From the NCBI GenBank assembly GCA_016184305.1, contig JACPCX010000160.1:1-17826 (forward strand): 17,826 bases of DNA, in the 5' to 3' direction. Below the pieces are notes generated by a model. The model saw only the letters and a list, made by a program, of their open reading frames with translations, ran no database searches and was not told where the DNA came from. Positions 14,879-17,003 of the stretch are shown one piece after another. Each line of letters opens with the position of its first letter. Position 1 is the first letter of the stretch. This stretch comes from Candidatus Rokuibacteriota bacterium. Lineage in GTDB: Bacteria > Methylomirabilota > Methylomirabilia > Rokubacteriales > CSP1-6. Made by a program: the position numbers and the translations under genes.

Positions 14879-15292
14879 TCAGGGCTTGGGGGCGCGGTCC
14901 TCGGCCGCGCGCGCACGGTCCTCGGCCGCGCGCGCGCGATCTTCCGCCTCCAGCATGCGCGTGGCGAGCTGGCGGATCAGCGCGAGCGCCAGCGCCGGGT
15001 TCGAGCGCACCAGGTGCTCCAGGCGATTGGCCGGAATGAGCATGAGCGTTACCGGCCCGTCCGCCACGGCGTCGGCCGAGCGCGGCGCATTGCGGAAGAG
15101 CGCGAGCTCGCCGAGCAGGTCGCCCTTGCCGATGACCCGGAGCACCCGGTGCTCCTCGCCGAAGCGCCGCCGGATCTCCACCTTGCCCTCGTGCACCATG
15201 AAGGCCTCGCCGTTGGCGCTGTCCCCCTCGCGGAAGATGAAGTCCCCGGGCTTGAACGTCCTGGTTGGCACATCCCCGATCTGACGGCTCAT
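14879..15292 (-). CDS. Stand-alone cyclic-nucleotide-binding (Crp/Fnr-type cNMP domain) protein without HTH
   Basis: Start ATG 15292 (137 aa): MSRQIGDVPTRTFKPGDFIFREGD...G.VEI...GDLLGELALFRNAPRSADAVA. The phosphate-binding cassette GE...PRSA is intact. Confidence 0.88.
   Translation of the reverse strand: MSRQIGDVPTRTFKPGDFIFREGDSANGEAFMVHEGKVEIRRRFGEEHRVLRVIGKGDLLGELALFRNAPRSADAVADGPVTLMLIPANRLEHLVRSNPALALALIRQLATRMLEAEDRARAAEDRARAAEDRAPKP
14895..14957 (-). repeat. 21-bp tandem repeat (2 near-perfect units + 1 degenerate) encoding AEDRARA heptads
   Basis: CGGTCCTCGGCCGCGCGCGC(A/G) at 14895 and 14916, degenerate copy at 14937. The protein ends EAEDRARAAEDRARAAEDRAPKP. Confidence 0.85.
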
Positions 15293-15323
15293 GCCTTGCC
15301 CTCGTGGTATAGAATAGCCCGCA

Positions 15324-16955
15324 GTGGCCCCCATGGTACGCCGATTCGCCCTCCTCGCGACAGTCATCCTGACCCTCGCGCCCGGCGCGCCCGGACCGCT
15401 GAGCGCCCAGACGAGCGTCACGGTGCAGGAGGCGCTGCTGCGCGCCAAGCCCGCCGTCGTGCTCGTGATCGCCGAGGTGTCCGCGGAGGTCACGCTCAAC
15501 TGCGGCGGCGGCCCCACCACCGTGACGCCGCCGGTGTTCCGCGAGACCGGCACCGGGTGGTTCGTGGACGGCCGGGGGTGGATCATCACCAACGGGCATG
15601 TGGTGCAGCCCGCGCACACGCCGCCCCGCTGGCTCGTGAATCAGCAGGCCCAGCGTGCGGTGACGACGGCATGCCTGGCGAAGGTGCTGCAGCGCCAGGG
15701 CATCACCCCGGGCGAGCGTCCCGATGTCGAGGACGCGGTGAAGCGCCGGCTGCTGGACCAGGTGCTGCCGACGACGAAGGTGAAGCTCAACCCGCAGGTG
15801 TCGGTGGTCATCTCGAGCGGCGCGCGCTTCAAGGCCGAGGTGAAGAAGTACAGCCCGCCGGTGAGCAACGAGCCCGGCGTCATGTCCGGACGGGATCTGG
15901 CGCTCCTCCTGATCCCCGGCGCGGAGTTCCCCGTGCTTCCCCTGGCCGACTCCAAGGTCGGGCGGATCGGCGACCCCATCCACATTCTCGGCTTCCCCGG
16001 CGTGGTGCTCTCCCACGAGCTCCTGAACAAGTCGGCCAGCGTCGAGGCCTCGGTGACCAACGGCGCCGTGTCCGGGTTCAAGCAGGACGTGACCAACCAG
16101 CCCGTGATCCAGACCGACGCGCCCGCGGCCTGGGGCAACTCGGGCGGGCCCGCGGTGGACCAGAAGGGCGCCGTGCTGGGCGTGCTCACCTTCGTGTCGC
16201 TGGCGCCGGGGCCCGAGGGCTCCATCGTCCAGGGCTTCAACTTCGTCATCCCCTCGGACGCGGTCCGCGAGTTCGTCAAGGGGACCGAGGTGAAGATCGA
16301 GGGAAAGAGCAAGTTCACGGAAGCATGGTTCAGGGGGCTCCGGGAGTTCTTCAGCGAGGACTGGAAGGCCGCCGCGCGGCACTTCGAGGCGGCGGACAAG
16401 CTGGTGCCGAACCTGCCCGACGTCAAGCGGGTCCTGGGAGAGGCGCGCGAGAACATCAAGAACCCGCCGCCGCGGCCCTTCCCGTGGTTCTGGGTGGCGG
16501 TGGGGGTCACCCTGCTGAGCGGGGCCGGCTATGGCGGCCAGTTCGGGCTGCGCTGGCACAGGAACCGCTACCGGATCCAGCCCTCGGAGGTGATCCGGAT
16601 GCTGGAGGCGGGCAAGGCGCCCATCGTGCTGGACGTGCGCAGGACGGAGGTGTACGAGGCCCTGCCGCTCAAGATCCCGAACTCGGTGCGGCTCGCTCCC
16701 GAGGAATTGGCGAGCGGCGTGAGCGGGCTCGAGCTCGACACCAACCGCCCGGTGGTCGCCTACTGTACCTGACACGACGAGGCCACGAGCGCCCGTGTGG
16801 CGCGCGATCTCAGGAAGCTCGGGTTCAAGGACGTCCGCATCCTCAAGGGCGGCCTCGGGGCCTGGACCAACGCGGGGCTTCCCATCGAGACCCGCTCGGA
16901 CATCTCCGCCGTGGGGCTCGAGCTCTACAAGGCGCTCGCCGGCGGCAACGTCTGA
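15324..16955 (+). CDS. Membrane-anchored trypsin-like serine protease-TPR-TM-rhodanese fusion, probable selenoprotein (Sec at TGA 16770-16772), ~543 aa
   Basis: Signal peptide (start GTG 15324 or ATG 15333), triad ITNGHVV / RDLALL / GNSGGP, TPR-like helices, TM FPWFWVAVGVTLLSGAGY. Rhodanese IVLDVR...IP.S...VVAYCT*HDEATSARVARDLRKLGFKDVRILKGGLGAWTNAGLPIE continues in frame to TGA 16953-16955. Confidence 0.82.
16773..16802 (+). promoter_or_regulatory. Candidate bacterial SECIS element
   Basis: GCCAC (16782-16786) pairs with GTGGC (16797-16801). An upper GC/GU stem would close a GCCC loop (16791-16794) starting with G, 18 nt after the UGA. Folded by eye only. Confidence 0.55.
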
Positions 16956-16966
16956 GGGCGGGCCGG

Positions 16967-17003
16967 AAACGAAAGCGGGGAGGCCCGTTCCCGAGCCTCC
17001 CCG
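16967..17003 (-). terminator. Terminator-like hairpin (U-rich tail on the minus strand, possibly bidirectional)
   Basis: Perfect 9-bp stem CGGGGAGGC (16976-16984)/GCCTCCCCG (16995-17003), followed on the minus strand by CTTTCGTTT. Confidence 0.55.

Follow-up and report, generated by a model that had tools for sequence, protein, structure and literature searches.

A predicted selenocysteine-containing rhodanese on the cytoplasmic tail of an exported serine protease in Candidatus Rokubacteria

Introduction

The stretch of DNA analysed here (the window, 17,826 nt) is contig JACPCX010000160.1 of a Candidatus Rokuibacteriota metagenome-assembled genome (MAG; GCA_016184305.1), and the question it raises is whether a TGA codon on its forward strand ends a protease gene or encodes selenocysteine (Sec) within it. 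An open reading frame (ORF) of 482 codons (15324..16772, + strand) ends in ...NRPVVAYCT, followed by TGA at 16770-16772, and 60 further sense codons (HDEATS...AGGNV) continue in the same frame to a second TGA at 16953-16955. A preliminary description of this DNA, made from its letters, had reported the ORF ending at VVAYCT-TGA and its 60-codon continuation, and both are confirmed in the sequence; it had also expected standard annotation to truncate the gene, and the public record is indeed a 479-aa 'trypsin-like peptidase domain-containing protein'. Judged from comparative sequence analysis, the gene very probably encodes a Sec-recoded protein of Candidatus Rokubacteria (Methylomirabilota), in which a protease is joined through a transmembrane (TM) helix to a rhodanese with a Cys-x-Sec (CxU) motif. 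As TGA also ends the gene as an ordinary stop, recoding would be local to 16770-16772. The features on which this reading turns are the following.

15333..16955, + strand: read-through gene, likely start ATG 15333 (alternative GTG 15324), terminal stop TGA 16953-16955, ~540 aa
16770..16772, + strand: in-frame TGA, proposed Sec codon, residue 483; aligned loci with TGA at this residue: 41 of 88, plus all 9 of the additional loci
16789..16803, + strand: hairpin GCGCC-CGUGU-GGCGC resembling a Sec insertion sequence (SECIS), with a 5-bp stem, a 5-nt loop, G at loop position 2 and a 16-nt spacer after the UGA

Residues are numbered from 15324, the GTG start assumed in the preliminary description; ATG 15333 is the likelier start, because M4 is at least 90% conserved in the homologue alignment (alignment A1) and full-length homologues are ~540 aa long. 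The part beyond the TGA had been said to have no start of its own. This does not hold strictly, as an in-frame GTG at 16797 opens a 52-aa ORF, though within the conserved rhodanese domain.

Results

Conservation of the TGA codon and of the sequence beyond it

The alignment of the site drew on 90 loci (38 of them in related genomes and 52 on named public contigs, a few being shared by both), and 88 were readable; these counts include kin, non-independent sequences and a few duplicates between sources, and results involving loci L037 and L150 and the phylum tally below rest partly on unpublished genomes (G012, G088 and G123). The residue-483 column held TGA in 41 of the 88 loci, the others carrying AGC (Ser, 24), TCG or TCA (Ser, 5), ACG or ACC (Thr, 9), TGC (Cys, 7), GCG (Ala, 1) or GAT (Asp, 1). 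Nine further loci, including three from a different family with 35-37% identity and the motif YCDU, all carry TGA there, and the preceding Cys of the YC pair is retained in all aligned loci except two. The comparison with homologues that the preliminary description had proposed thus gave TGA at the same column in loci of as little as 35% identity, with conserved sequence after it, and the codon is not peculiar to one assembly. The nearest relative locus is 96% identical, with MAG contigs of Candidatus Rokubacteria / Methylomirabilota the closest among named contigs, and many of 41 related genomes gave full-length matches with exactly one TGA. Some homologues were listed with two TGAs; a second Sec was considered for these and rejected, the only TGA in the aligned core of the six loci fetched being that of column 483.

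Among the 120 best database proteins the site is occupied by Ser (53), Cys (18), Thr (17), Asp (10), Glu (4) or Ala (3), and 15 proteins end at YC[TS], presumably as truncated gene calls. A search of a sample of the phylum detected the protease-rhodanese protein (E<=1e-60) in 99 genomes out of 151, including 90 of 93 in the family of the window and 6 of 7 in a second family, with 0 of 11 and 0 of 18 in two others, and two copies are frequent within one genome. Homologues of 66-75% identity also occur in MAGs labelled Verrucomicrobiia, Binatia, Nitrosotalea (an archaeon), Dormiibacterota, Acidoferrum, Deferrimicrobiaceae and Limnocylindria (loci L076, L090-L093, L095, L097 and L101), for which mis-binning or mislabelling is more likely than transfer.

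Nei-Gojobori dN/dS over the 60 post-TGA codons was 0.045-0.21 in 15 comparisons with TGA-bearing homologues of equal length that had synonymous divergence (comparisons being counted by locus, some repeated between sources), which argues, as the preliminary description had required of a selenoprotein gene, that this stretch is under purifying selection and is translated. Ratios for the upstream region, which assumed no gaps and are unreliable for distant pairs, were not used.

In a midpoint-rooted quick maximum-likelihood tree Sec appears in every deep clade, one clade of 11 is entirely Sec, and supported branches force at least nine changes of Sec state. The simplest reading of this distribution is that Sec was ancestral and was repeatedly lost to Cys, then to Ser, Thr and others, although the root is not established.

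A hairpin that accompanies the TGA

At +17..+31 after the TGA, GCGCC-N5-GGCGC is present in all 37 distinct TGA-bearing sequences, with the loops CGGGU (20), CGUGU (11), AGGAU (3), AGUGU (2) and CGUGC (1); among 44 sequences lacking the TGA, 4 can form the five pairs, namely 1 of the 7 TGC sequences and 3 of the 37 that have another codon. Stem loss in the non-TGA sequences occurs mostly through synonymous codon choice in the conserved S-A-R-V-A peptide. Because related sequences are not independent, the association was tested with independent pairs on a tree of 78 sequences: over nine pairs differing in TGA, the hairpin followed the TGA in an average of 8.4 and went against it in none (median sign-test p 0.004). 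The hairpin recurs with the same spacing in all nine further protease-rhodanese TGA loci and in 9 of 10 other rhodanese TGA loci, the tenth forming its stem through one G-U pair.

The bacterial SECIS (bSECIS) model given in a recent review (PMC13188914) has a loop of 3-9 nt, a stem of 4-16 bp, a G within the first two loop nucleotides, a UGA-to-loop distance of 16-37 nt and a minimum free energy (MFE) of at most -7.5 kcal/mol. The hairpin at 16789..16803 falls within these limits, with its 5-nt loop, 5-bp stem, UGA-to-loop distance of 21 nt and -7.6 kcal/mol when folded alone, and its loop position 2 is a G followed by G or U, as that model (PMC13188914) wants. It also lies within the MFE fold of +1..+45. 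The motif occurs five times after a TGA genome-wide, with coding context only at 16789-16803, and the idea that it is a general SECIS of this organism was rejected as only one of the five post-TGA occurrences is in coding context.

Selenocysteine genes in the source genome and its relatives

The source genome is a 3.2-Mb MAG of 239 contigs with 70% G+C, 88.8% completeness and 36 tRNAs. It encodes selD (345.7 bits) with one in-frame TGA near the N-terminus (contig C18 of this genome, 28407-29345, locus L007), a gene that by its sequence encodes a Sec-containing SelD, and a TGA-containing selD is also found in 4 of 4 other genomes of the family. Both selA and selB are present in each of the three same-genus genomes examined (3 of 3), whereas the Sec tRNA (tRNA-Sec) scores above cut-off in two of them and is represented by a cut piece in the remaining one. 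These three genomes and a fourth each have tRNA-Sec, selA and selB together on a single contig (G003:C2:43285-48078, G002:C150, G007:C131 and G001:C154), with a gap of ~1.4 kb between tRNA-Sec and selA.

A composition-based scan of the source genome gave 83 in-frame TGA candidates, from which 16 with redox-like motifs were picked (loci L134-L149, on contigs C10, C52, C70, C80, C81, C121, C126, C128, C173, C200, C215, C224 and C227). Fourteen match thiol-redox families, one is two adjacent genes and one has no match. Eleven of the 14 match NCBIfam families named as (seleno)protein or after a Sec-containing (U) motif, most of them below curated cut-offs: UGSC (three), WAxxUGC, CYCXC, Rcas_1661, GSU3128 (two), PrdB/GrdB-like (two) and AhpD-related. 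These other in-frame TGAs fall at UxxC, CxxU and UGSC-type motifs, and a Prx-like gene is also among them. The source MAG thus has a large predicted selenoproteome, most of whose genes are presumably cut short or split by annotation; the review PMC13188914 mentions 63 predicted selenoprotein genes in one Methylomirabilota MAG.

Domain architecture and predicted topology

The read-through product is divided as follows.

15333..15407, + strand: putative signal peptide (MVRR, hydrophobic helix, PLSA|Q), read from sequence; AlphaFold2 helix 4-17, then a low-confidence linker
15456..16277, + strand: predicted extracytoplasmic S1C (HtrA/DegS-like) serine protease domain without PDZ, from Pfam Trypsin_2, catalytic residues and Foldseek
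16311..16460, + strand: three-helix linker, residues 330-379 (AlphaFold2 helices 330-343, 347-360 and 365-379), preceding the membrane
16482..16565, + strand: predicted single TM helix (PWFWVAVGVTLLSGAGYGGQFGL) followed by the positive patch RWHRNRYR; AlphaFold2 helix 387-414, positive-inside rule from sequence
16572..16883, + strand: predicted cytoplasmic rhodanese domain interrupted by the TGA (Pfam Rhodanese; loop Y-C481-T-U483-HDEATS; Cys481 codon 16764-16766)
16884..16952, + strand: conserved C-terminal tail (ETRSDISAVGLELYKALAGGNV) with E522, G531, E533, Y535, K536 and L538 invariant, leading into a cyclic-nucleotide-binding domain in fused paralogues

In Pfam searches of the read-through product, Trypsin_2 covered residues 76-287 (79.9 bits, 4e-22) and Rhodanese residues 420-516 (43.8 bits against a gathering cut-off of 22.2, 3.6e-11), and no PDZ domain was found at E<=0.01. 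As the Rhodanese match spans residue 483, the TGA splits one domain in two. The catalytic residues His92 (15597-15599), Asp191 (15894-15896) and Ser273 (16140-16142) are invariant in 36 sequences, as are Y480 and C481. In the AlphaFold2 model (mean pLDDT 70.9), helix 4-17 is followed by the protease (45-318) with a helical insert at residues 102-150, the helices of 330-379, the long helix 387-414 and a rhodanese fold (417-510), and the best structural matches in Foldseek are the protease domains of HtrA1 and DegS (TM-score ~0.7 on target). The signal peptide, intact His-Asp-Ser protease, one TM helix and cytoplasmic Cys-Thr-Sec rhodanese proposed in the preliminary description are therefore supported by Pfam, invariant residues and the model; its TPR-like helices survive as the three-helix linker at 330-379 and not as TPR family members, the product having no Pfam TPR match.

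The protease is predicted to lie outside the cell and the rhodanese inside, because of the N-terminal MVRR, hydrophobic helix and LSA|Q, the RWHRNRYR patch after the TM helix, and the fusions to cyclic-nucleotide-binding domains. The latter would place the C-terminal end in the cytoplasm, since it is there that paralogues carry the fused domain.

In catalytic thiosulfate sulfurtransferase rhodaneses the active-site loop has six residues, and the Cys is followed by basic or amide side chains. The loop found here is not of that type, as it is acidic and carries a two-residue insertion after the Cys relative to solved rhodaneses (YC--GGGFRSA against YCTUHDEATSA).

A cyclic-nucleotide-binding partner and other neighbouring features

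Two further features flank the gene.

14879..15292, - strand: divergent 137-aa stand-alone cyclic-nucleotide-binding (cNMP-binding) protein, likely partner (Pfam cNMP_binding, 3.6e-22), its start 40 nt from ATG 15333
16976..17003, no strand assigned: GC-rich 12-bp hairpin 21 nt past the stop codon, a possible terminator with a T-rich tail on the minus strand only

The cNMP-binding protein has an intact and invariant phosphate-binding cassette (G61, R71, S72 and A73). A divergent cNMP-binding gene lies 14-55 nt upstream in 41 of 88 loci (the clade of the window), and in 26 of 88 (the Ser/Thr clade) a cNMP-binding domain of 42-52% identity is fused to the C-terminus of the protease-rhodanese protein, a form that Pfam confirmed in one locus and in one database protein 68% identical to that of the window. 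Neither gene nor fusion was seen in the remaining 21 of 88 loci, most of which have flanks of 500 nt or less. Gene order and fusion suggest that the cNMP-binding protein is likely a partner of the protease-rhodanese protein. Its own C-terminus (14879-14960, - strand) is a threefold tandem repeat of AEDRARA, and homologues align only to about residue 125.

The 40 nt between the divergent starts of the cNMP-binding and protease genes (15293-15332) contain an element, TGGTATAGAAT, that resembles an extended -10 box, and a consensus scan found no sigma-70-like promoter around the gene. The hairpin at 16976-17003 may terminate a convergent minus-strand gene, or both genes. An Rfam search of the window gave no match, and ARAGORN found no tRNA in it.

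Comparison with known selenoproteins and proteases

That rhodanese-type selenoproteins are known from bacteria, as the preliminary description had noted, is borne out by NCBIfam NF041203 (rhodanese_LYCAU) and by a review table (PMC13188914), which attributes the prediction of a rhodanese 'form 3' selenoprotein with a CxU motif to Zhang & Gladyshev 2005. NF041203 is the top match of both the read-through protein (74.9 bits) and the locus (71.5), but both scores are under the curated cut-off of 115 bits, and NCBI's criterion thus excludes the protein from the family. Both have a rhodanese fold with Sec two residues past the catalytic Cys (C-x-U), here as Y-C481-T-U483. NF041203, however, describes a small protein of 126 positions with L-Y-C-A-U, whereas the present rhodanese, with A-Y-C-T-U, forms the cytoplasmic tail of a 540-aa exported protease.

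Counterparts exist in other families of the order, in which TGA-bearing rhodaneses without the protease fusion (loci L150-L163) carry the motif YC[TS]U-P.E..SARVA and are 38-45% identical to residues 416-524; one of these, checked in full, is a DedA/VTT-domain membrane protein with a C-terminal rhodanese. DedA-associated rhodaneses with such a loop had been mentioned in the preliminary description, and DedA(VTT)-fused proteins with YC[TS]U-P.E..SA were indeed found. They have the same loop, an identical hairpin at identical spacing and a rhodanese placed after a membrane segment and positive patch, but their membrane part is a polytopic DedA/VTT domain (PF09335) in place of the signal peptide, protease and single TM helix found here. 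The occurrence of the same rhodanese and hairpin on DedA/VTT proteins and on a protease suggests that the CxU rhodanese and the SECIS within it form a modular unit that is joined to various membrane proteins. A full-text literature search found no printed description of a DedA/VTT-CxU rhodanese.

On the protease side, the protein resembles HtrA, DegS and DegP (S1C) in its fold and His-Asp-Ser triad, and DegS in being extracytoplasmic with a membrane anchor. It differs from them in having no detected PDZ, in the helical insert at 102-150 and in an anchor that lies C-terminal to the protease and runs on into cytoplasmic domains; at the family level it scores 66.4 bits on TIGR02037, well below the cut-off of 416. 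The Global Ocean Sampling (GOS) survey lists a 'trypsin-like serine protease' and a 'secreted serine protease MucD' among predicted selenoproteins (PMC2398784), and these share with the present protein a serine protease domain and a predicted Sec. As described in that survey (PMC2398784), however, Sec replaces a conserved Cys inside the trypsin domain of the former and the MucD-like protein has CxxU, whereas here the predicted Sec is in a separate rhodanese on the opposite side of the membrane. The GOS 'trypsin-like' selenoprotein was accordingly rejected as the same family, its Sec lying inside the protease domain (PMC2398784) and the only in-frame TGA here lying in the rhodanese. TsoB (NF045694), a rhodanese/DsbD fusion-like selenoprotein, likewise joins a Sec rhodanese to a membrane protein, and gave a weak match (18.3 bits, E 5e-4); its motif is UxxxxU and its partner domain another (PMC13188914).

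The architecture had been put forward as undescribed. This stands for the protease fusion, since a full-text literature search found no fusion of a CxU rhodanese to a protease (Haft & Tolstoy 2025 and Deng et al. 2026 may list the family), and does not stand for the CxU rhodanese, which is already listed as a kind of predicted selenoprotein. What is apparently new is the fusion of a CxU rhodanese to a periplasmic S1C protease, with a cNMP-binding partner either divergent or fused.

Discussion

The UGA at 16770-16772 is very probably recoded to Sec by the short SECIS hairpin at 16789-16803 within the coding sequence, giving a product predicted to run from a cleavable signal peptide through an HtrA/DegS-like protease without PDZ, a three-helix linker and a TM helix to a cytoplasmic rhodanese. 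The preliminary description had supposed that such a protein could couple proteolysis outside the cytoplasm to sulfur/selenium or redox chemistry inside it, and a way in which this might work can be proposed from domain content, motif and gene linkage. Cys481 and Sec483 would form a reversible selenenylsulfide, with the rhodanese serving as a redox or persulfide-responsive module rather than as a classical thiosulfate sulfurtransferase, and the rhodanese and its cNMP-binding partner would report the cytoplasmic state through the membrane helix to the protease outside. That a selenenylsulfide switch of this kind, sensing redox state or persulfide together with the cNMP partner, modulates the outside protease is possible rather than probable. 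Residue 483 looks like a resolving or tuning residue and not an essential one, because the Ser and Thr forms keep Cys481. It is unlikely, though conceivable, that the whole forms an inside-out regulated envelope protease, in which the Cys481-Sec483 switch in a degenerate rhodanese and the cyclic-nucleotide sensor set protease activity or assembly, and that the CxU rhodanese with its SECIS is a portable Sec module grafted onto both DedA/VTT proteins and the protease. If true, such inside-out control would add a hitherto undescribed form of transmembrane signalling.

The same Sec protein could instead use its rhodanese as a carrier of sulfur or selenium, with a persulfide or perselenide on Cys481 that Sec483 resolves or relays at the membrane, and with a protease that is independent or a mere anchor or partner. 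Rhodaneses are established sulfur and selenium carriers, the rhodanese fold and the invariant catalytic Cys are retained here, and the CxU module occurs with the same hairpin on DedA/VTT proteins in sister families, so that it would serve more than one membrane partner. This role is nonetheless rather doubtful, as the loop exceeds that of solved sulfurtransferases by two residues, is acidic (P-D-E) and lacks the basic side chains by which thiosulfate or persulfide is held, most paralogues have Ser or Thr in place of Sec, and the tight link to cNMP binding points to signalling over trafficking.

Both proposals take the TGA to encode Sec, and several results count against that. The first is the identity of the replacements. 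The site had been described as a classic Sec/Cys position, and Cys homologues do exist (TGC in 7 of 88 loci, YC[ST]C in 18 of 120 proteins), but Cys is the minority and Sec is more often replaced by Ser or Thr. The preliminary description had named a non-Cys sense codon among close homologues as a sign against Sec, and taken literally such codons are there (Ser in 29 and Thr in 9 of 88 loci). Their prevalence means that residue 483 is not essential to the basic function of the family and is dispensable in many lineages, but it does not show that the TGA stops translation. Comparison with the 96%-identical relative, which differs by two non-synonymous and no synonymous changes after the TGA, is uninformative.

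The second concerns RNA structure. RNAalifold found no covariation in the hairpin among 34 distinct TGA sequences, which share an invariant 5-bp stem and no conserved extended stem; there are no compensatory changes because the stem never varies. The 86-nt fold around the TGA pairs differently and is not more stable than shuffles (z = +1.30; 185 of 200 shuffles fold as well), and non-TGA sequences fold on average at least as stably as those with TGA (-17.2 against -14.8 kcal/mol, p 0.16). Thermodynamic stability is no usable signal in this 70% GC genome, and the fixed-register comparison and the 45-nt fold were used in place of the 86-nt fold.

The third is the machinery. Of the four genes that the preliminary description had suggested looking for, the source genome yielded the TGA-containing selD, but selA, selB and tRNA-Sec (selC, sought with ARAGORN) were not found in this 88.8%-complete MAG, though they are clustered in same-genus genomes. 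Because the cluster occupies one contig in these relatives, one unassembled contig would explain the gap. A relative of 98% completeness (G010) also has no selA, selB or tRNA-Sec above cut-offs, although its selD contains a TGA and it has the protease-rhodanese gene in two copies, both with TGA; its gap could reflect binning or divergent machinery.

The absence of selA, selB and selC from the finds in both the source MAG and G010 would suit a TGA that is read through without Sec, by a near-cognate Trp or Cys tRNA or by a lineage-specific suppressor. Such decoding is very improbable, since the hairpin fits the SECIS model and is lost along with the TGA, the other in-frame TGAs of the genome fall at the U of UxxC, CxxU and UGSC motifs in known selenoprotein families and in selD, TGA terminates this same gene, and genomes of the same genus have the full machinery. 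That the TGA is a true stop (through nonsense mutation, sequencing error or pseudogene formation), leaving a 482-aa protease with half a rhodanese, can be dismissed as extremely improbable, for although public annotation has 479-aa proteins and YC[TS] is the C-terminus of 15 among the 120 best database proteins, dozens of independent assemblies, with identities as low as 35%, share this TGA, the downstream frame is open with dN/dS of 0.045-0.21, and the post-TGA codons complete the rhodanese model.

With the TGA read as Sec, a protein present in 90 of 93 sampled genomes of its family, a major lineage of soil and aquifers, would be systematically truncated in public annotation, leaving its cytoplasmic domain and selenium dependence invisible to users of those records. 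Sec would then have a novel context, in the cytoplasmic tail of an exported protease with genetic ties to cyclic-nucleotide sensing, and the protein would be a candidate, open to experiment, for the control of envelope proteolysis by redox state or a second messenger. The family may also serve as a natural experiment, in which a single position is occupied in turn by Sec, Cys, Ser, Thr, Ala, Asp or Glu and each loss of Sec is followed by decay of the SECIS hairpin. It may therefore help in studying the retention and loss of Sec, and in training those selenoprotein gene finders that depend on Sec/Cys pairs.

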